This document shows, one piece after another, positions 2,612 to 51,134 of a stretch of DNA of 64,000 bases. The notes below the pieces were generated by a model. It saw only the letters and a list, made by a program, of their open reading frames with translations, was not told the DNA's origin and ran no database searches. How positions within the stretch are numbered: position 1 is the first letter of the stretch; every line of letters starts with the position of its first letter. Made by a program: the position numbers and the translations under genes. This DNA comes from Nanobdellota archaeon (lineage in GTDB: Archaea; Nanobdellota; Nanobdellia; UBA10117; ARS21), in NCBI GenBank assembly GCA_014240455.1, contig JAAZWY010000001.1, forward strand, positions 87,924-151,923, read 5' to 3'.

Positions 2612-5125
2612 ATGATGAAGAAACTTTTCATGACTTTGGCCATTCTTACGCTAGTTATGCAACCGGCCTTTGCTTTTACTCTTTCTTCAGCCGATCAGAG
2701 TATTTCAACATGTCCAAGTAATACTGGATTGTTTGTTGCTCAAGTTGGCAATTCTGGAAGTTCTACAGAGACTTACAGTTTAGGCGTGTCTGGAGCTGCT
2801 AGTGGTTGGGCAAGTGTTGCACCTGCCGGATTTGCTTTAGGACCAAGCCAGTCTCAAGATGTTTATGTTTATGTTACTCCTTCTTCAAATGCTCAAGCAG
2901 GTAATTATCCTTTAACTTTAACTGTTTCTTCTGGATCTTCAAGTCAAAATTTACTTTTTGATTATGAAGTTGAATCCTGTCATGATATTTCATTGACTGC
3001 TCAAGTCAATGAGCTATCGGTTTGCTCAGGAAATTCAGCAAGTTATACGTTAAATCTTAGAAACGAAGGTCAATGGGAAGACACATTTGATTTGGCAGTT
3101 TCTGGCGAAGCTGGACCTTGGTCAAGTTTGAGTAGAAATTCAGTTTCACTTGCACCTGGTGAGTCTGAACAAGTTAGTGTTTTAGTTACTCCTCCGCGAA
3201 ATAATGTTGGAGTTTATTCATTGGCAGTATCTGCTACTTCTCAAAGTGCAGGCGTTGTTGTTGCCCAATCTTTAACAATCACTTCAAGATCATGTTATGA
3301 TTTTGATATGGCTGCATCAGAAAATTATGTTTCATTTTGTGATAATTCTGAAGCAAAAGTACCGGTGACAATTACAAATTCAGGATCAGAAAATAATGTT
3401 TATAGTTTGGATTTAGACGGAACTGGTTGGTCAGTTCTTGATAGGGATTCAATTAGTGTTCCTGCCGGCGCGAGCAGCACATTCAATTTAATATTAACTC
3501 CAGGATTTGGAGATGTTGGAACAAGCGTTTTCAATATTGATGCCGAAGCTGCTACTGGAGATACATCTGATTCAGTAACAATTAATGCGAATGTTTTAAC
3601 CTGTAGAGATACAAGTTTGGATATTGAGAGCTCAAGTATTGAACTTTGCTCAGGAACAAGTGACACTGTTGATGTTATGCTGACGAATGCAGGACAGTTC
3701 CAAGAAAGCTACTCATTAACTGTCGATGGACCAAGTTGGGTTACATTAGATAGAAATTCAGTAATTCTTGCTTCAGGAGAATCATCATCAATGCAATTAT
3801 CTTTAACTCCACCTACAAACGTTGGATTGATTTATGAAGACGTCACAATTAATGCCAGATCTCAAAATGTTGGAAACACACAAGATTCTGATGCGATTAG
3901 AGTAAATGTTCCTGTTCGAGCAGCATGTTATAATGTTGATCTTACTGCAGAACACAAGTCAGTAACTGTTGCATATGGTGAGGGTGCATTAGTTCCTATT
4001 GTTGTTCGAAATACGGGTTCTCAAAGTAATATTTATGAATTTACAATTTCCGGAGACGGAGCTCAATTTGCACAAATTAATCCAGGCGCAATTGAAGTCG
4101 AAGGCAATACTGTTGAGGAAACTTATTTGTATATTTCAGTTCCACTTGATGCAGCAAAGAATTCTTACACTATTTCTGTAGCAGCTCAATCAGGAGACTT
4201 AAGAGATTCAACATCAGTCTTTTTAACAGTCTCAGATGAAGAACCTAAATTTGTTGGAACAATTCCAGGAAGCGATTCTGGATTACTTTCATCAGTATGG
4301 GGAGAGCTATCTGTTTTATATTCCGTTGCCTCTAATTTTGTTGTAAATTATTGGTTTGTATTTCCGGCACTATTAGCACTGTTGGTTGTGCTTTATGGAC
4401 TTGGAAGAGTTCGTGATTCTGAATCTTGGATGAAAGATTTGGAACTTCTTGAACAAGAGTTAGAGTTTTCTGAAAAGAAAGCAAAACCTAAACCTAAGAA
4501 GACACAACCATCATTGCTAAAACGATTCTCAGATTGGTTAATGGAAGAAGATGAAGTAAAAATAATAACTAAATCTAAACCACTGATTAAATCTGAAACT
4601 AAAGTTAAGAAAGAACCAGGAATATTCCAACGGTTTTCAGATTGGTTAATGGAAGAAGATACGCCAAAGGCTAAACCTAAACCTAAACCAAAGAAAGAAT
4701 CAGGAATGCTAAAACGAATCTCAGATTGGTTAATGGAAGATGATGAAGTTGTTCAAGTAACGCGTAAACCTGGAAAATCATTTTTTGAACAAGCTAAAGA
4801 ATTTCTTTTTGAAGAAGTCCCAGTTGCTGAAGAAAAAATAAAAGTTAAGGCTAAACCTAGAACAAAGAAAAAAGAAAAAGGAATTTGGCAAAAATTCATT
4901 GACTGGTTAGAAGAGGAAGATGAACCAAAAGTTAAGGTTAAACGCACAGTTAAGAAAGTAGCACCTAAGAAGACACAACCAGGGATCCTTCAACGATTTT
5001 CAGATTGGTTAATGGAAGAAGATGAACCAAAGGCTAAAGAAAAACCTAAACCTAAACCTAAACCAAAGAAAAAAGAAAAAGGAATTTGGCAAAAATTCAT
5101 TGATTGGTTAGAAGAGGAAGATTAA
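2612..5125 (+). CDS. Large type-I membrane surface protein: signal peptide, about 6 CARDB-like repeats (N.G...TYSL..G..W..L....L.PGES..V.V.VTPP), TM helix (FVFPALLALLVVLYGLG), then about 240-aa cytoplasmic tail with about seven (R/K)FSDWLMEED repeats separated by KPKPK linkers
   Basis: Repeats and TM read directly from translation; tail motif copies LLKRFSDWLMEEDE, IFQRFSDWLMEEDT, MLKRISDWLMEDDE, IWQKFIDWLEEEDE (x2), ILQRFSDWLMEEDE. Confidence 0.7.
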   Translation: MMKKLFMTLAILTLVMQPAFAFTLSSADQSISTCPSNTGLFVAQVGNSGSSTETYSLGVSGAASGWASVAPAGFALGPSQSQDVYVYVTPSSNAQAGNYPLTLTVSSGSSSQNLLFDYEVESCHDISLTAQVNELSVCSGNSASYTLNLRNEGQWEDTFDLAVSGEAGPWSSLSRNSVSLAPGESEQVSVLVTPPRNNVGVYSLAVSATSQSAGVVVAQSLTITSRSCYDFDMAASENYVSFCDNSEAKVPVTITNSGSENNVYSLDLDGTGWSVLDRDSISVPAGASSTFNLILTPGFGDVGTSVFNIDAEAATGDTSDSVTINANVLTCRDTSLDIESSSIELCSGTSDTVDVMLTNAGQFQESYSLTVDGPSWVTLDRNSVILASGESSSMQLSLTPPTNVGLIYEDVTINARSQNVGNTQDSDAIRVNVPVRAACYNVDLTAEHKSVTVAYGEGALVPIVVRNTGSQSNIYEFTISGDGAQFAQINPGAIEVEGNTVEETYLYISVPLDAAKNSYTISVAAQSGDLRDSTSVFLTVSDEEPKFVGTIPGSDSGLLSSVWGELSVLYSVASNFVVNYWFVFPALLALLVVLYGLGRVRDSESWMKDLELLEQELEFSEKKAKPKPKKTQPSLLKRFSDWLMEEDEVKIITKSKPLIKSETKVKKEPGIFQRFSDWLMEEDTPKAKPKPKPKKESGMLKRISDWLMEDDEVVQVTRKPGKSFFEQAKEFLFEEVPVAEEKIKVKAKPRTKKKEKGIWQKFIDWLEEEDEPKVKVKRTVKKVAPKKTQPGILQRFSDWLMEEDEPKAKEKPKPKPKPKKKEKGIWQKFIDWLEEED

Positions 5126-6854: not shown

Positions 6855-7346
6855 ATGGAAAAAGGAACCCTAATTGGAAATAAGGTCGTGCTCAGCACGA
6901 GTTCTCTATTTGATCGTAGTGTTTTTGGTACTTTGAATAAGCAAGGCGGTATTGAATTAAGTTCTGAAGAAGCACTTTATCTTGTAGAGAAGAAAAAAAT
7001 TGATGTAGGTACTAGTTTTGATAATCTGCGTAGAAAATTTAATCGAAGCAATAAGAATTTTGAAGAAAGATATGCTGTTTTCAGAGATTTGAGAAATCGA
7101 GGCTATATTTTGAAGAGTGGTTTGAAATTTGGTTGTGATTTTAGAGTTTATGATAAAGGTTCAAGACCTGGAAAAACTCATGCTAAATGGCTAGTGTTTT
7201 CTACCAAAGAAAATGCTAAGTCTTCTTGGAAAGAAATGTCTGGAATGGCACGAGTTGCAAATTCTACTAAGAAAAATGTCTTGGTCGGAATTGTAGATTC
7301 AGAAAATGGAGTTAGCTATTTTGAAGTTTCTTGGAGACGACCATGA
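6855..7346 (+). CDS. endA: tRNA-splicing (intron) endonuclease EndA
   Basis: C-terminal catalytic motif GCDFRVYDKG...HAKWLV matches archaeal EndA family (F/Y-RVY..G....H..LV). Confidence 0.8.
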   Translation: MEKGTLIGNKVVLSTSSLFDRSVFGTLNKQGGIELSSEEALYLVEKKKIDVGTSFDNLRRKFNRSNKNFEERYAVFRDLRNRGYILKSGLKFGCDFRVYDKGSRPGKTHAKWLVFSTKENAKSSWKEMSGMARVANSTKKNVLVGIVDSENGVSYFEVSWRRP

Positions 7347-26392: not shown

Positions 26393-26664
26393 TATCTACG
26401 ACCTCCTCTACTTCCACCTGCTTCGATTTCAGTTTGAGTTAACATAATAATGTCACCAGGTCTAGTTGGACCATAAACTAATCTTCGCATAATTTTACCA
26501 GCATCTCTGCCGTCTAGAATTTTACATCGAACCATGTAAACAGCTTGTTTTCCAGATTGTCTTTCAAGACGTTCAATAACTTCAGCAGGATAAGCAGTTA
26601 ATAGTTTACTGTCTCCTTTTACTTTTTCTTTTGGTGCGTCTTTAACTTTCTGATTTTTTGCCAT
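26392..26664 (-). CDS. rps28e: 30S ribosomal protein S28e
   Basis: AEVIE...G..G.V..V.CKILDGRD.GKI..R.V.GP.R.GDIIML..TE.EA. Confidence 0.85.
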   Translation of the reverse strand: MAKNQKVKDAPKEKVKGDSKLLTAYPAEVIERLERQSGKQAVYMVRCKILDGRDAGKIMRRLVYGPTRPGDIIMLTQTEIEAGGSRGGRR

Positions 26665-27416
26665 TACTCAGTCTTTTCTTCTGAAGTTTCAGCTTCTTTC
26701 TTTTTAGGCTTTTCTTCAACAGGTGCTTCTACTTCCGCTTCTTCAGCTGGTTTTTCTTCAGTAGCTTCCTCTTCTGAAGTTTCAGCTTCTTCCTTTTTAT
26801 CTTCTTTGGATTCTGCTTCTTCTGTCTTTTCTTCAACAGGTGCTTCTACTTCTTCAGCCGGAGTTTCTTCAGCAGGTTCTTCTACAACTTCCTCAGTTTT
26901 TTCTTCTGATTCAGCCGGAGTTTCTTCAACAGCTTTTTCAACCTTTGCAGGTTTTTCAGCTGGTGCTTCTGTCTTTTCTTCAGCAGATTCTTCTACTTTT
27001 TCCTTTGGAGCTTTCTTTTCTGCTGGTTTTTCTTCAGCAGGTTTTTCAGCCTTTACAGGTTCAGCTTCTGCTTTCATTAAAATTTGAATATCTTCTAAAA
27101 GATTGTTTAGTTTCTTTTGAGCTTCACCAGGATTTGCAATTGCTACAGCAGCTGTTGCGACAGGTAATCCTGCAGCTGCGCCTAATTCTGCTTTAGAAGG
27201 CACTTCAACGTGCATAATTTCTTTATCCTTAGCTAAAAGAGCTAAATGTTGAATAATTTCGCCTGGAGATACGTCAGTAGCTACAATAGATAGCTTAGCT
27301 TCACCTCTTTCCAAGGACTTTGTTACTTCGTTTACACCTTTCCGGATTTTTCCGTCAGTACGAGAATCCTCAATAATTGAGTAGATTCTTTCAATAATAT
27401 CTTTTGTTAGTTCCAT
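26664..27416 (-). CDS. rpl7ae: 50S ribosomal protein L7Ae (K-turn binding) with unusual about 130-aa C-terminal Lys/Glu/Ala/Pro-rich low-complexity extension
   Basis: N-terminal 120 aa match L7Ae (GVNEVTK...AKL.I.A.DVSP.EII.HL..LA); tail EEKPAE/EETPAE repeats with DNA-level direct repeats. Confidence 0.8.
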   Translation of the reverse strand: MELTKDIIERIYSIIEDSRTDGKIRKGVNEVTKSLERGEAKLSIVATDVSPGEIIQHLALLAKDKEIMHVEVPSKAELGAAAGLPVATAAVAIANPGEAQKKLNNLLEDIQILMKAEAEPVKAEKPAEEKPAEKKAPKEKVEESAEEKTEAPAEKPAKVEKAVEETPAESEEKTEEVVEEPAEETPAEEVEAPVEEKTEEAESKEDKKEEAETSEEEATEEKPAEEAEVEAPVEEKPKKKEAETSEEKTE

Positions 27417-28706: not shown

Positions 28707-29099
28707 CTATGCGAATTTAATCCAAGCTAGAATTAGAAGCAGACTATTTACAAGATATATGCTTGTACAAACTAAACAGAAGTTTTTGAGTTTGAAATAT
28801 GAAATATATGCCAGATAAATTGTTGTAAGCATTCCGAATGCTGCTAAGTATAGAATCCAGGGTGCGTAAAAAGTTAAGTATAGAATAAATATTGTTGAGT
28901 AAAATCCAATTCCCAGAATTGAATTATTTATCCCTAACGTTCTCGAATATTTACTTTCAAATGCTGCTGAGCAAGAGATTTTTTTATTTATGTCACAAAC
29001 GGGAGAATAATCTTCTTGCGCCACTAATTTTCTTTCAACATACAAGGAGTAAACAGATAGAATTAATCCTAAAATTGCTAAGATTTGAATGTAAATCAT
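28707..29099 (-). CDS. Vitamin K epoxide reductase (VKOR) family membrane protein
   Basis: Loop cysteines C..... CSAAFESKYS and TM CxxC (CLVC); 4 TM. Confidence 0.65.
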   Translation of the reverse strand: MIYIQILAILGLILSVYSLYVERKLVAQEDYSPVCDINKKISCSAAFESKYSRTLGINNSILGIGFYSTIFILYLTFYAPWILYLAAFGMLTTIYLAYISYFKLKNFCLVCTSIYLVNSLLLILAWIKFA

Positions 29100-30201: not shown

Positions 30202-30399
30202 ATGCCTTTTCACAGCATGGCAAAAGATAAGCTTAATTACTGGGCACAGGTTTTGCTGATTTTAGGTGGTTTAAACATTGGACTAGCTGAACTAGGTTGG
30301 GGATTCTTCGGATTCCTAGGCGGTTTGGAAATGGTCGTAAACTATCTTGTGGGACTATCCGCACTTTACCTTGGATATGGCCTATTAACAAGCAAGTAA
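30202..30399 (+). CDS. DUF378 (COG2155) small membrane protein
   Basis: ILGGLNIGLAELGWGFFGF...LVGLSALY matches DUF378 pattern. Confidence 0.65.
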   Translation: MPFHSMAKDKLNYWAQVLLILGGLNIGLAELGWGFFGFLGGLEMVVNYLVGLSALYLGYGLLTSK

Positions 30400-46378: not shown

Positions 46379-47710
46379 TTAAATCGTTCTTGCAAATTTT
46401 AGAATTTCTTTTTTGAGTATGTTTCCTTTTTCTTTGACTGAATATTCTGCTCTAACGCTCGGAATTTTTAGTTGTAAGAGTTTTGATAAATCAATTGGAG
46501 TTCCAATAATTGCAACATCTGCGCCAGAGTTTTCAATAGTTTTCTTTAAATCCATCAGTTGTTTTGGGAAATATCCCATTGCTGGAATAATTTCTTTTAC
46601 GTTTGGATATTTCTGAAGCGTTCTTTTGATTGAACCAATTGCATGAGGTCTTGGATCAATAATTCTCAGTTTTGCTTTTGTTGCAGCAAGATAACCTGCA
46701 CCGTAAGTCATTCCACCATGGGTTGTTGTTGGTCCATCTTCTACAATTATTGCCTTTGTTCGTGGTTTTATTTTCTGAGTTAATTTTACTAGAGAATCTG
46801 TATGCACAATTTTTGCTTTTGGATTCATTATCTTAATATTTTCAATTGCATTATCTATTTGTTTTTTTGTTGCAGTATTTTCTTTATTTATTACAACAAT
46901 ATCTGCAGTCATTAAATTTGTTAATCCAGGATAATAAAGAAGTTCGTGGTTTTCCCTCAAAGGATCAACAATTGTTATTTGTAAATCTGGTTTGAAAAAT
47001 GAGAAATCGTTGTTTCCTCCATCCCAGAGAATTATTTCTGAACGTGATTCTGCTTCTTTCAAGATCTCAGAATATTCAATTCCTGCTAAAACTGTTCGAC
47101 CCTTTATTAGGTGTTTTTCATATTCTTCCCGTTCTTCAATGGTGGTGTTGTATTTATCCAAGTCTTCAAGAGATTCAAAAATCTGAACTCTTTGCTTTTC
47201 TAAATCTCCATAAGGCATTGGGTGTCTGACAACTGTGTATTTTACACCAATTTTTGTTAAGAAGTCTGCAACATAATCAGTTATTTGTGATTTTCCTGAA
47301 CCCGTTCGAACAGCAGTTACTGAGATTACTGGTTTTCGTGATTTTATTTGCGTTGAGTTTGGGCCCAATAGCATGAAGTCAGTTCCAAGTGCTTGAACTC
47401 CCGCAGCAATTTCCATAACTTTCTGATTTGGTAAGTCGGAATAAGAAAGAGCACATAAATCAACTTTTAGAGATTTTACTAATTCTGGAAGAAGCGATTC
47501 AGAATAAATTGGAATTCCTTGTCCGTAATGTTCTCCAGTTAAAGAATTTGGATACCGCTTATTGTCAATGTTTGGAATTTGAGTTGCAGTAAATGCAACT
47601 ACTCGAAATTTATCATTATTTCTAAAGAAGGTGTTGAAGTTGTGAAAGTCTCGTCCAGCTGCACCGAGTATAATAGTGCGAATAGGTTTCATAATATAAC
47701 TATATTTCAA
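46379..47710 (-). CDS. COG2403-type P-loop protein (family annotated as cyclic 2,3-diphosphoglycerate synthetase-like)
   Basis: LGAAGRDFHNFN N-terminus, P-loop RTGSGKSQ, DGGNND. Confidence 0.5.
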   Translation of the reverse strand: MKYSYIMKPIRTIILGAAGRDFHNFNTFFRNNDKFRVVAFTATQIPNIDNKRYPNSLTGEHYGQGIPIYSESLLPELVKSLKVDLCALSYSDLPNQKVMEIAAGVQALGTDFMLLGPNSTQIKSRKPVISVTAVRTGSGKSQITDYVADFLTKIGVKYTVVRHPMPYGDLEKQRVQIFESLEDLDKYNTTIEEREEYEKHLIKGRTVLAGIEYSEILKEAESRSEIILWDGGNNDFSFFKPDLQITIVDPLRENHELLYYPGLTNLMTADIVVINKENTATKKQIDNAIENIKIMNPKAKIVHTDSLVKLTQKIKPRTKAIIVEDGPTTTHGGMTYGAGYLAATKAKLRIIDPRPHAIGSIKRTLQKYPNVKEIIPAMGYFPKQLMDLKKTIENSGADVAIIGTPIDLSKLLQLKIPSVRAEYSVKEKGNILKKEILKFARTI

Positions 47711-47721
47711 AAGTATAAAAA

Positions 47722-48435
47722 TTATTCTAAGAATTCTTTTATGATTTCTGCGGCGTTGTGAGTGGTGATTCCAGTGTAATCATTGTCAGGAACCACTTCA
47801 ACTAAGTCTGCACCGATAATATTTCCTTTTTTCAGATGTCGAATTGCTTTGATTAATTGATTCGGTTTCATACCTTTTGGGACTGGATGATCTACTCCGG
47901 GAGCATAAACTGGATCAAGAACATCAATATCAATTGTTACATAATATCTCTTAGATCTCATTTTTTTAATTTCACTCGGTTTGATTACATGTACTCTTTT
48001 AGAATTTTTCAAAAACTCTACTTCTTCTTTGATTTTCTTAAATCTATATCCAATTAAGTAAATATTTCTACAGTGATGTAGTTCCGAAACTCTTCTCAAA
48101 ACTGTTGCGTGACTAAGTGAGCCTTTGTAAACATCATATGCATCTGCATGTGCATCAAACCAAAAAACATCAAAAGGTTTTATGTTCCCTTGTAAAATTG
48201 GTAAAGTAATTGAGTGGTCCCCTCCAATAAAGAAAGGTTTTAATCCAGATTTCCAAATTGCTTTGGCTTTGTTTCGAATTTTATCGTTTGCTTGTTCCTG
48301 AGTAAAATTATTCAATCTTAATCCCGGAAATTTTAAACCCAACTCTTTTCTAAGTGCAGCGACAGCTTTGTCTGCTGCCCCTGTTTCAAATTCAGAATAT
48401 AATGCAATTGGTGCACCGATTAATTGGAAAGCCAT
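47722..48435 (-). CDS. speB: Agmatinase/arginase-family ureohydrolase
   Basis: GGDHSIT, DAHADAYD, IDIDVLDP Mn-binding motifs; start at second Met to avoid overlap. Confidence 0.8.
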   Translation of the reverse strand: MAFQLIGAPIALYSEFETGAADKAVAALRKELGLKFPGLRLNNFTQEQANDKIRNKAKAIWKSGLKPFFIGGDHSITLPILQGNIKPFDVFWFDAHADAYDVYKGSLSHATVLRRVSELHHCRNIYLIGYRFKKIKEEVEFLKNSKRVHVIKPSEIKKMRSKRYYVTIDIDVLDPVYAPGVDHPVPKGMKPNQLIKAIRHLKKGNIIGADLVEVVPDNDYTGITTHNAAEIIKEFLE

Positions 48436-48440
48436 AATTA

Positions 48441-48824
48441 TTAACCTTGATATTCGCAACCTGCTGAGGCTGCTAAACTTTCAAGAGGTTTAACTCCTGT
48501 TGATTTTTGTCCATTGATCTCCCAAGTTGGATATCCACTTATGCCTGCTACTTGGCAGACTTCAGGTTGAGCGTCTTGTCCTCGTTCGTCACATTCAACA
48601 TAATCTATTGCTTTGAATGCTGGACCAAATAACTCTTTCTGAGTTGTACAAGCTCCACACCAGAATGCTCCGTACATCTTTACGTTCTTTTCAGTTAGAC
48701 ATTGTGCAAGTTCTAATTTTGTAGGATCTGCTTTGAACATTATTGTATTCATTGCAAAACCAAGCGCTATAATTATTACTATCACGATTGCTGAAGATTT
48801 GATGGTTTTCTTTTTTAATTTCAT
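48441..48824 (-). CDS. Membrane-anchored extracytoplasmic thioredoxin-like protein (VKOR-partner-like)
   Basis: N-terminal TM, WCGAC active site, YPTW motif. Confidence 0.7.
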   Translation of the reverse strand: MKLKKKTIKSSAIVIVIIIALGFAMNTIMFKADPTKLELAQCLTEKNVKMYGAFWCGACTTQKELFGPAFKAIDYVECDERGQDAQPEVCQVAGISGYPTWEINGQKSTGVKPLESLAASAGCEYQG

Positions 48825-48925
48825 AAAATGTTAACTCCATGTATAATTATATCTGCGTAGATTGCAATCCCAACTGACGCTGCAATAAGTAACACCAATC
48901 TCATCAATCTTCCTTTGTTATTCAT
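48821..48925 (-). CDS. 34-aa single-TM peptide MNNKGRLMRLVLLIAASVGIAIYADIIIHGVNIL, ATGA-coupled at both ends (aIF2-gamma stop / Trx-like start)
   Basis: Hand-translated; start ATG overlaps eif2g TGA, stop TGA overlaps downstream ATG. Confidence 0.45.
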   Translation of the reverse strand: MNNKGRLMRLVLLIAASVGIAIYADIIIHGVNIL

Positions 48926-50133
48926 TTAACGTCTCCCCAACCAATTAAGTGCCATCGACTTCCAAACTTCCGACTGATAGCGACTTTAGCTCCCGGGTTT
49001 ACTGCTATTGCACGCTTTAGGTTTATTATAGTTGTGTTTCCAATTTGATTAACCATTCCCCAAGTTGTTGCAGTTCCAACATTTAGAACCAGCGGTTCAT
49101 GCATCTTAACGGGTTCAATTGGCAAATCTTCCTTTGCACCAAGAACTTTATCAAATAAGTGAGGTTCAATTTTTAGATTATTAATAATTTCAGGAGTCTT
49201 TCCTGGAGCGCCGATAATATTCCCAACAAGTGAGTCGGTTCTGGTTTGAGCAGGATCAAGTTCGGTTTCAATTGCTACAGAACCTCCCGGTCCTTTTTCA
49301 CTAATTGATTTGTTTCCAGCTACGATGTTTTTTATTTTTGTTTTTACTGGCGTCCAAGTTGATACACCTTTATTTTCAGTTTTGAATCCAGGAGAAATTT
49401 CAATCTCTTGTCCGACTTTAAATTTTCCGCCAGTTATTGTTCCGCCCAAAATTCCGCCAGTTAGTTTTTGAATTTTTGTTCCCGGTTTGTTAATATCAAA
49501 ACTTCGTGCGACAATGAATGAAGAATCAGCTTTTTCTTTTTCTTTTGGAGTTGGCATAAATTCTTCAATTGCTTCAATTAAAATATCAAGATTTGCTCCC
49601 TTTTGAGCAGACATTGGAATAATTGGAACTTCAAATCCAAGAGTGTCGGTTACAAATTTCTCAACTTGTTTGTAATGTTTCTTTGCATCAGCTTGTTTTA
49701 CTAAGTCAACTTTGTTTTGAACCACAATTATGTTTTTGATTCCAAGAATTTTTAGAACAGTTAAGTGTTCACGAGTTTGAGGTTGTGGACATTCTTCGTT
49801 TGCTGCAACCATTAAAATTGCACCATCCATAATTGCCGCTCCAGAAATCATTACAGCCATTAATGTTTCGTGACCTGGTGCATCAACAAGTGAAATTTTT
49901 CGAATAAGCTCAGTTTCTTTCCCATCAACTTTTGATTCATTTGTAAAATTACCTTTCTTGTCTTTTCTGATTTCAATATCAGCATAACCAAGTTTGATTG
50001 TAATTCCTCGCTTTAATTCCTCAGAGTGAGTGTCTGTCCACTTTCCAGATAGTGCTGAAGTAAGAGTGGTTTTACCATGATCTACATGACCAATTAAACC
50101 AATGTTCATGACTGGAAGTGCGTCGTTTTTCAT
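48922..50133 (-). CDS. eif2g: Translation initiation factor 2 subunit gamma
   Basis: GHVDHGKTTL G-domain, zinc-knuckle, about 400 aa. Confidence 0.9.
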   Translation of the reverse strand: MKNDALPVMNIGLIGHVDHGKTTLTSALSGKWTDTHSEELKRGITIKLGYADIEIRKDKKGNFTNESKVDGKETELIRKISLVDAPGHETLMAVMISGAAIMDGAILMVAANEECPQPQTREHLTVLKILGIKNIIVVQNKVDLVKQADAKKHYKQVEKFVTDTLGFEVPIIPMSAQKGANLDILIEAIEEFMPTPKEKEKADSSFIVARSFDINKPGTKIQKLTGGILGGTITGGKFKVGQEIEISPGFKTENKGVSTWTPVKTKIKNIVAGNKSISEKGPGGSVAIETELDPAQTRTDSLVGNIIGAPGKTPEIINNLKIEPHLFDKVLGAKEDLPIEPVKMHEPLVLNVGTATTWGMVNQIGNTTIINLKRAIAVNPGAKVAISRKFGSRWHLIGWGDVK

Positions 50134-50144
50134 AACTTAGCTTA

Positions 50145-50564
50145 TTGGTTGCGTTTAAAAGTTTTAAGATTGGAGATTATTGTATGATTGTTGAAGGAAA
50201 GCCGGAACTTGAAAAATTGCTAAAACAATATGATTCTGGAGAAAGAGAAATTTCAGCTAAAGATTATACTGGCTCTGAAGCAGAAGTTGGAATTTATTCT
50301 TATTTGAATTTGTTTACTGTTGCCTCAGATGGTGAAACTTATTTAGCAGCAAATACAAAACTGCAGAGAAATCTTTCTTTAGAGGTTTCATTAGGTAAAA
50401 GTTTGAATTTTACTTGGAGTCTTAAAAAAATACTAAACCTGACGGCGAATTATTCTAAGCGAGTTAGAGAACTTACTGAACTTGGAAGAGATTTGTTATT
50501 GACTTGGAGAAAACATAATAATTTAGATTTACAAAAAGGAACTAACTTAGAAGATATTAATTAA
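50145..50564 (+). CDS. Hypothetical protein
   Basis: ORF only. Confidence 0.4.
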   Translation: MVAFKSFKIGDYCMIVEGKPELEKLLKQYDSGEREISAKDYTGSEAEVGIYSYLNLFTVASDGETYLAANTKLQRNLSLEVSLGKSLNFTWSLKKILNLTANYSKRVRELTELGRDLLLTWRKHNNLDLQKGTNLEDIN

Positions 50565-50735: not shown

Positions 50736-51134
50736 TTATGTCTTTACTATTTCTTTCATGATTTTCTTTCCCATGATTTGCCAGTACAGAATAATTTTTC
50801 CTGCTTCGACTTGTGCTTGAAGTTCTTCTGGAATTTCAAGATCAAATGTTTCATAGCTTTCCATGTCCATGATTTGCGCTGAGGTTCCTGAAACTGAAAG
50901 AACATTTGCTTTTTGTTTTCTCAAGTTCGGAACTTCTATGTGAGCATGAGCAGTCATAACGATAACTGTTTTATTTCCAGTAAACATGTTTTTTGCTTCA
51001 ACCCGATATTTTGCGTGACCGTGCTTACCTGGTGCTGATTTTTGCATGTTTGAAATAATATGAGGTTCTCCATTAACAACAATGTAACGACCTTCTTTCA
51101 ATTTGCCGATTTCGGCCATAGTAACGTCTGACAT
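50736..51134 (-). CDS. eif5a: Translation initiation factor 5A (hypusine site GKHGHAK)
   Basis: SAPGKHGHAKYRVEAK and C-terminal OB domain. Confidence 0.9.
   Translation of the reverse strand: MSDVTMAEIGKLKEGRYIVVNGEPHIISNMQKSAPGKHGHAKYRVEAKNMFTGNKTVIVMTAHAHIEVPNLRKQKANVLSVSGTSAQIMDMESYETFDLEIPEELQAQVEAGKIILYWQIMGKKIMKEIVKT

Follow-up and report, generated by a model that had tools for sequence, protein, structure and literature searches.

A probable small membrane-protein gene overlaps the 3' end of aIF2-gamma in a clade of marine Woesearchaeota

Between the genes for the translation initiation factor aIF2-gamma and a membrane-anchored thioredoxin-like (Trx-like) protein, a Nanobdellota archaeon carries an open reading frame (ORF) of only 34 codons and a TGA stop. 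Does so short a frame encode a protein, and if it does, what might that protein do? The ORF occupies 48821..48925 on the minus strand of the window, the 64,000-nucleotide stretch that we analyzed (assembly GCA_014240455.1, contig JAAZWY010000001.1, positions 87,924 to 151,923), whose numbering is used throughout. Read from 48925 to 48821, it runs ATG AAT AAC ... ATT TTA TGA and encodes MNNKGRLMRLVLLIAASVGIAIYADIIIHGVNIL. Its ATG (48925..48923) shares TG with the aIF2-gamma stop TGA (48924..48922), and its own stop TGA (48823..48821) shares TG with the ATG (48824..48822) of the 127-aa Trx-like gene, which encodes a WCGAC motif. The original prediction took this precise coupling on both sides as an argument for a real, unannotated micro-protein with a single transmembrane (TM) segment, likely a membrane partner of the Trx-like oxidoreductase. 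Re-reading the ORF returned exactly the same peptide, and the coordinates bear out both stop/start overlaps. From comparison with relatives, the ORF is very probably a real protein-coding gene. We give a probability of about 0.6 to the fuller claim, resting partly on analogy, that its product is a micro-protein of the membrane, produced through coupling, that serves as an accessory helix.

Within one genome, the coupling argument is weak. The window has a GC content of 34-36%. In it 33 codons remain open with a chance of 0.14 calculated from the stop-trinucleotide frequency, and in 0.04 of trials when the 99 interior bases are shuffled; a 4-base ATGA or 1-base TAATG overlap ends about 11 of the 65 long ORFs of this compact genome. 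The double overlap gains its force only after comparison with relatives. A search with the Trx-like protein, using one genome per species, recovered four other Woesearchaeota metagenome-assembled genomes (MAGs) with the same arrangement (L007-L010), in which the Trx-like protein is 69-92% identical to that of the window. All four have a 34-codon frame between aIF2-gamma and the Trx-like gene, with zero indels and both ATGA overlaps kept. Scanning JGI metagenomes with the peptide alignment yielded ten more loci, all in the same context. The 34-codon form exists in 10 distinct DNA versions, none with a stop or an indel, and homologues of 35 and 29 codons lie in the same position. Because the 10 versions are distinct, the related loci are not assembly duplicates of one sequence. 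The frame is kept directly after aIF2-gamma in every carrier locus examined.

Substitutions in the frame follow the pattern of a coding sequence. We used Nei-Gojobori counts to compare the ratio of nonsynonymous to synonymous change (dN/dS) in the ORF frame with that in the two shifted frames. In the five-species set the in-frame ratio is 0-0.4, and in the shifted frames it is about 1. Pairwise values among the 10 DNA versions are 0.02-0.55 in frame, and again about 1 in the shifted frames; they resemble those of the Trx-like gene (0.07-0.29) and are somewhat higher than those of aIF2-gamma (0.02-0.11). The window type (L001) differs from L008 by 9 synonymous and 0 nonsynonymous changes. Within the closest sub-clade, 18 of 24 variable sites fall in the third codon position, and between two carriers of the 29-codon form (L103 and L105) the differences comprise 9 third and 6 first positions. 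Even between lineages whose synonymous sites are near saturation (proportion of synonymous differences, pS, up to 0.9), no stop interrupts the frame. A random mix of synonymous and nonsynonymous change, which the original prediction had named as evidence against a real micro-protein, is therefore not what we observe. Since purifying selection preserves the amino-acid sequence, beyond the openness of the frame, the product probably acts as a peptide. Rfam models run over the window found one tRNA elsewhere and nothing at the locus.

Carrier lineages were found through contigs of aIF2-gamma homologues at decreasing identity. A conserved backbone runs through eRF1, a histone, aIF5A, an L40e-like zinc ribbon, an opposite-strand gene (in some), aIF2-gamma, a variable slot and an agmatinase-like gene. 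In the window clade, which includes L007-L010 (aIF2-gamma identity 88-100%), the slot contains the 34-aa ORF and the Trx-like gene. In L103, L104 and L105 (75-76%) it contains a 29-aa ORF, MKNKYRILFLIGFCSLSLLIAGHIDHLFV, overlapped at both ends and followed by the Trx-like gene; the L105 form starts with GTG in a GTGA overlap. In L087, L088 and L102 (75%), which are 100% identical to one another, it contains a 35-aa ORF alone, MKNKYSIVLAIFFTIAIVALAIYADSIMYGINLFQ, which has an ATGA overlap with aIF2-gamma and at its other end overlaps the agmatinase-like gene directly. The gene caller left the 35-aa ORF uncalled in the L087 lineage. Beyond the carriers, the slot of L089 (69%) has the Trx-like gene alone, after a 22-nt spacer; that of L091 (67%) has an unrelated Lys/Arg-rich 140-aa protein; and that of L106 (63%) is empty, with the next gene on the opposite strand.

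The three lengths appear to be versions of one gene. The 35-aa form aligns in register with the 34-aa forms and has AIYADSI in common with L010. MKNKY is common to the 29- and 35-aa forms, and the 29-aa form agrees with every other form at A21 and D25; its score against a profile built from those other forms is 15.7 bits, which 0 of 2000 composition-matched shuffles attained. In a neighbour-joining tree of aIF2-gamma the carriers are monophyletic, with L089 as their sister. The aIF2-gamma stop is TGA in 13/13 carrier loci and TAA in 3/3 non-carriers, and the overlap of this stop with the start of the small ORF is present in all 13 carrier loci. The downstream ATGA overlap is found in every carrier type read, except for a single read-through strain. 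We also considered recoding of the TGA and rejected it: aIF2-gamma ends at the same C-terminal position as in TAA-using relatives, so the TGA is a true stop. Homologues outside the clade were found neither by phmmer against 1.84 billion representatives (3 matches, all within the clade), nor by a padded profile search of 5.8 billion proteins (11 clusters, all of this clade), nor among the ten loci of the JGI scan. On these comparisons, the micro-gene would have a single origin in a family-level clade of marine Woesearchaeota, immediately after aIF2-gamma, and would represent a young, new and unnamed family restricted to that clade. One idea for the L087 lineage is that its Trx-like gene was lost by a microhomology deletion that reused the Trx-like ATG ('MKL'). 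The agmatinase-like gene of L103 natively starts MEVKLIGAP, however, so the 'MKLIGAP' of L087 need not be a chimera.

The peptide itself has the features of a small membrane protein. Its best 19-residue Kyte-Doolittle window (2.53) lies at residues 10-28, giving a predicted TM helix at 48842..48898 (minus strand); over the same residues, the four 34-aa variants scored average 2.0-2.5. By hydropathy this is the one hydrophobic segment, in agreement with the predicted single TM span. Residues 1-9 of the window peptide carry a net charge of +3 (basic K4, R6 and R9); among the four variants, the net charge of these nine residues ranges from +2 to +4, and that of residues 24-34 is -1. Because the N-terminus is basic, the positive-inside rule predicts that the protein crosses the membrane once, with its N-terminus on the inner and its C-terminus on the outer side. 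In alignments of the 34-, 35- and 29-aa forms, M1, K4, A21 and D25 are invariant. Apart from K4 in the basic N-terminus, Asp25 (codon 48851..48853, minus strand) is thus the sole charged residue kept across all three lengths. Its place is close to the predicted outer end of the helix, between Tyr/His23 and His/Tyr29, which Gly30 follows. The peptide contains no cysteine. Pfam models give no match, and NCBIfam models give only a sub-threshold match of 16.5 bits to the 35-aa form. No paralogue of the peptide was found within the window. Duplication of the N-terminal anchor of the Trx-like protein was considered as a source; the resemblance seen by eye ('MNNKY...GIY', in the Trx-like protein of L065) amounts only to generic signal-anchor composition.

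Several observations weigh against a functional membrane peptide. The peptide diverges faster than its housekeeping neighbours and is 50% identical where aIF2-gamma is 90% identical, and its length ranges over 29-35 aa across carriers. In one ENA contig of 2795 nt from an L010-type strain (P0190), the stop is changed from TGA to TGG, adding 10 residues (…HGISILWNWKRKLSEI) for a total of 44 aa, while the Trx-like ATG is kept. This change is either a real polymorphism, indicating tolerance at the C-terminus, or a sequencing error. The read-through together with the variable length implies that C-terminal constraint is loose. The conservation of His29-Gly30 could come in part from the GGAG that these codons place ahead of the Trx-like start. 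Finally, hydrophobic character says little by itself about a membrane role, since peptides encoded by AT-rich sequence tend to be hydrophobic.

The two GGAG elements are candidate signals for translation of the ORF and its neighbour. The first, at 48933..48936 (minus strand), lies 7 nt upstream of the small ORF ATG and is a candidate Shine-Dalgarno-like (SD-like) element; it falls within Gly-Asp/Glu codons at the aIF2-gamma C-terminus, and most other starts of the locus have no such motif. The second, at 48835..48838 (minus strand), precedes the Trx-like ATG by 10 nt and falls in the codons for His29 and Gly30 of the small ORF. It is kept in 4 of the 5 species compared (GGAA in L010), but the 29- and 35-codon forms lack it, and the frame must therefore be conserved for some other reason. 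A TTTTAAA box lies about 27 nt upstream of the aIF2-gamma ATG, a start that lacks an SD-like motif; the operon mRNA may therefore be leaderless and begin at aIF2-gamma. Judging from these elements and the overlaps, we infer that ribosomes finishing aIF2-gamma would re-initiate on the small ORF, possibly aided by the GGAG 7 nt upstream. They would then pass to the next gene, which is Trx-like in two sub-clades and agmatinase-like in the third. The product would be a peptide of 29-35 residues with a basic cytoplasmic N-terminus, one TM helix, and an Asp with Tyr/His near the outer face. By analogy with known small membrane proteins, it most likely serves as a small helix that attaches to a larger membrane protein as an accessory or modulator.

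Which membrane protein that might be is suggested by the neighbouring genes. The aIF2-gamma gene (48922..50133, minus strand; 403 aa) matches Pfam GTP_EFTU at 1.8e-36 and eIF2_C at 5e-24. The Trx-like gene (48441..48824, minus strand) encodes a protein with an N-terminal hydrophobic anchor that matches residues 170-277 of 3KP9, the Synechococcus VKOR-thioredoxin fusion, with an E value of 7e-23; these residues are TM5 and the Trx-like domain. It is also 50-57% identical to the Trx domains of cyanobacterial loci, many of which, though not all, are VKOR-Trx fusion ORFs. By homology the gene encodes a VKOR-associated Trx-like domain and not a generic thioredoxin. A stand-alone VKOR of 130 aa with a CLVC motif was located by tblastn at 28707..29099 (minus strand; PF07884, 3.6e-28), ATGA-coupled to an upstream gene of the TyrRS/TrpRS family. 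This VKOR, about 20 kb away, is the likely redox partner of the Trx-like protein. Since the Trx-like protein corresponds to the TM5 and Trx half and VKOR is encoded separately, this archaeon has a split disulfide system, whose two halves are each surrounded by translation genes and not placed in a redox cluster. The VKOR-thioredoxin-like disulfide system is known from the structures of Synechococcus VKOR (PDB 3KP9/4NV2; background in PMC4555120). The Synechococcus protein is a fusion, whereas here two separate genes lie 20 kb from each other. Nothing in the solved fusion corresponds to the micro-protein, which has no significant similarity to VKOR helices and is cysteine-free. We take this split VKOR / Trx-like system as the leading candidate partner of the micro-protein.

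The explanation that survives best beside our own is a more specific form of it, close to what the original prediction proposed: the micro-protein would be a dedicated extra-TM partner of the Trx-like oxidoreductase, of VKOR, or of both, with coupling serving to bring both products to one site in the membrane and the peptide stabilizing or tuning the split, disulfide-forming complex. In two of the three sub-clades an ATGA overlap links the peptide gene to the Trx-like gene, an arrangement that is conserved. Both proteins are predicted to be single-pass with the N-terminus inside and have basic N-termini, so parallel packing of their helices is possible, and both genes evolve faster than their neighbours. 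A VKOR-Trx system split across genes could use a helper, VKOR is present in both carriers checked (the window and the L087 genome), and the Asp, His and Tyr near the outer leaflet could conceivably contact a quinone, a metal or a partner helix. However, in L087, L088 and L102 the peptide gene has aIF2-gamma on one side and the agmatinase-like gene on the other, and the locus lacks a Trx-like gene, although one could lie elsewhere in the L087 genome. In the sister lineage L089, aIF2-gamma is followed at once by the Trx-like gene, and the peptide is missing. GW2011_AR20, L043 and distant Woesearchaeota, Pacearchaeota and other DPANN archaea have DsbA, Trx-like and VKOR clusters without it. The peptide also lacks cysteine, and we know of no small subunit in VKOR or DsbB systems. 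With the peptide occurring without the Trx-like gene and the Trx-like gene without the peptide, the invariant linkage is to the 3' end of aIF2-gamma; strict adjacency and co-occurrence with the Trx-like gene fail across genomes, and the membrane partnership that had been proposed is not established. A dedicated partnership is thus possible but doubtful. Its boldest version is distinctly improbable: in host-dependent DPANN archaea, a recently born, possibly de novo, extra TM subunit would belong to the split VKOR / Trx-like machine, and its Asp25 and Tyr/His would help to dock the Trx-like anchor helix onto VKOR or to handle the electron acceptor.

A different explanation is that the ORF is a translated relay: ribosomes would need the frame to reach the next gene, and the peptide would be a short-lived by-product with no function of its own. 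Such a role would account for the retention of both overlaps even where the downstream gene switches from Trx-like to agmatinase-like, and the downstream starts of L103 and L087 have no good SD-like motif. Variation in length and at the C-terminus (29, 34 and 35 aa, and the 44-aa read-through), as well as the youth of a gene confined to one clade, are also compatible with it. Yet a relay would tolerate amino-acid change, whereas dN/dS is 0-0.55 with a strong third-position bias, and K4, A21, D25 and Y/H23 are kept across all three forms. Nor is a relay necessary, as the Trx-like gene of L089 follows aIF2-gamma over its 22-nt spacer with no relay ORF. We regard this explanation as unlikely. The weakest alternative, that the ORF is not a gene but a chance frame in a conserved non-coding spacer (RNA or regulatory) or a decayed relic such as TM4 of a VKOR-Trx fusion, draws on the 4-14% expectation of an open 33-codon frame in such spacers and on a superficial 'CSLSL..GH' likeness of the 29-aa form to the last part of TM4 in cyanobacterial VKOR, but it is effectively refuted by the comparative data, namely codon-periodic substitutions, dN/dS far below 1 in this frame only, a frame open at near-saturated synonymous divergence (pS up to 0.9), the lack of an Rfam match at the locus, and VKOR-fusion alignments that stay close to shuffled scores. 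The likeness in question is between GFCSLSLLIAGH of the 29-aa form and GVCSLSLFLLTIVGH of the cyanobacterial protein; origin as a VKOR helix relic was rejected on the shuffle test, in which Smith-Waterman alignments against 41 VKOR-Trx fusions scored only 0.4-1.8 SD above shuffled sequences and matched TM1, TM4 or TM5 depending on the peptide type.

A coupled accessory membrane peptide, the reading we prefer, has known parallels. Prokaryotic small single-pass membrane proteins include CydX, AcrZ, KdpF, YohP and MgtS. As a rule such proteins bind a larger membrane protein, which they modulate. Like the micro-protein, they have fewer than 50 aa, one TM helix and a short charged end, are encoded inside operons, are often missed by annotation, and are conserved in a narrow taxon. 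Reviews of the class include PMC7549839, PMC11539335 and PMC10903887. The class is a functional kind and not a homologous family, and the micro-protein shows no sequence similarity to described members or to Pfam or NCBIfam models. It differs from the class examples in being archaeal (DPANN), in an operon headed by a translation-initiation-factor gene, with no obvious membrane complex adjoining. As in translationally coupled genes of the ATGA type, the overlaps are of four nucleotides, present at both ends and conserved in carriers (GTGA in L105). Among putatively coupled genes it is peculiar in that a whole gene lies between two overlaps and the downstream partner depends on the lineage. The micro-gene thus appears to be an ordinary, well-supported, lineage-specific small membrane-protein gene in an operon, involving no new mechanism.

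Vakirlis et al. in 2020 are said to have described TM peptides born de novo from T-rich or AT-rich intergenic sequence. The micro-gene resembles this concept: it is young, clade-restricted and hydrophobic, a stretch of 33% GC between two older genes. The sister L089 has only 22 nt of spacer at the site, and no non-coding precursor of similar length was found. Besides birth de novo, origin by insertion or by duplication is possible.

The description of the gene as unannotated needs qualification. It holds for the NCBI record (L004), which omits the gene, but not for the ENA gene calls, which include it, as do those of JGI; annotation pipelines are inconsistent. The exact peptide is deposited in NCBI, JGI, ENA and Logan as 'hypothetical protein' on 56 contigs. 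Marine metagenomes are a source of contigs that match this one exactly or nearly so, as are MAGs that carry the label Candidatus Woesearchaeota, such as GCA_018650895.1. A few database entries carry a 44-aa version with an N-terminal extension from an upstream ATG. We rejected this extension, along with a frameshift fusion to aIF2-gamma, since an in-frame upstream stop is present in the window, L008 and L103, and the extension is not conserved.

Stop-codon usage offers one more observation on coupling in this genome. TGA ends only 7 of the 65 long ORFs in the window, and 5 of these 7 are ATGA overlaps with a downstream ORF (ends near 7346, 48922, 29096, 21053 and 19495); the TGA stop is here close to a marker of an overlapping downstream start. 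The ORF at 6855..7346 (plus strand) provides a second ATGA overlap into a short ORF, of 68 codons, which could be another small-protein gene.

The agmatinase-like gene of the arginase family, next in the operon (47722..48435, minus strand), matches the Arginase model at 8e-48 and an agmatinase model at 4e-41, the latter below its curated cut-off. It shares an operon neighbourhood with aIF5A (50736..51134, minus strand) and aIF2-gamma in all relatives examined. Agmatine and polyamines feed the hypusination or deoxyhypusination of aIF5A, and the linkage of the two genes may be functional. Two further neighbours have no convincing family. One, at 46379..47710 (minus strand), encodes a protein of 437-443 aa with only a weak CobW/HypB-like P-loop match, kept in most relatives examined. 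On the opposite strand, 50145..50564 encodes a protein of 126-139 aa that is found in most relatives and is absent in L089 and L103-L105.

Around VKOR, the L087 genome (L107) retains the TyrRS-VKOR-GluRS synteny of the window, with no Trx-like gene beside aIF2-gamma. GW2011_AR20 (L011) has instead a cluster of DsbA, Trx-like, cupredoxin-like, 124-aa multi-TM and VKOR genes, and no micro-gene. A cupredoxin-like gene lies by VKOR or the Trx-like gene in both of these Woesearchaeota lineages (L107 4580..4954; L011 4394..4834), in L107 in the order cupredoxin, TyrRS, VKOR. In organisms that are probably without quinone synthesis, the arrangement may point to a copper protein acting in the VKOR electron path. 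No cupredoxin or DsbA homologue was found in the window. A 65-aa ORF with two hydrophobic segments (30202..30399, plus strand) lies in the gap upstream of the TyrRS-VKOR pair, and the cupredoxin gene of the L087 lineage is at the matching position. In another woesearchaeote (L065, ERP019367_co1_16, about 3780..4264), the Trx-like domain is fused to an N-terminal C2H2-type zinc finger and TM anchor (…CEKCDREFGSQQGLDDHNRNKH…MNNKYTWIFLVIVLVVVGIYF…), an unusual architecture for a VKOR-type Trx-like protein. A 250-aa ORF (26664..27416, minus strand) ends in a highly acidic C-terminal tail, about 130 residues long, with abundant Glu, Lys, Pro and Ala and with PAEEK-like repeats; the syntenic gene of L107 encodes 198 aa with an L7Ae domain (PF01248).

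At present, the practical value of the finding is a correction of annotation and a candidate for small-protein studies. For uncultured DPANN archaea, it also illustrates that metagenome comparison on its own is enough to validate a gene of about 100 nt. If the peptide does serve the VKOR / Trx-like system, a hitherto unknown component would be added to extracytoplasmic disulfide formation in organisms that are probably without their own quinone synthesis. An extra TM subunit, if real, would be the first small subunit described for a system of the VKOR/DsbB type, and its gene a dated micro-gene birth in a translation-factor operon. For the family itself, the comparisons point to a dated, single-origin small membrane-protein gene that arose between two older genes, has been long retained, and survived a change of its downstream neighbour.

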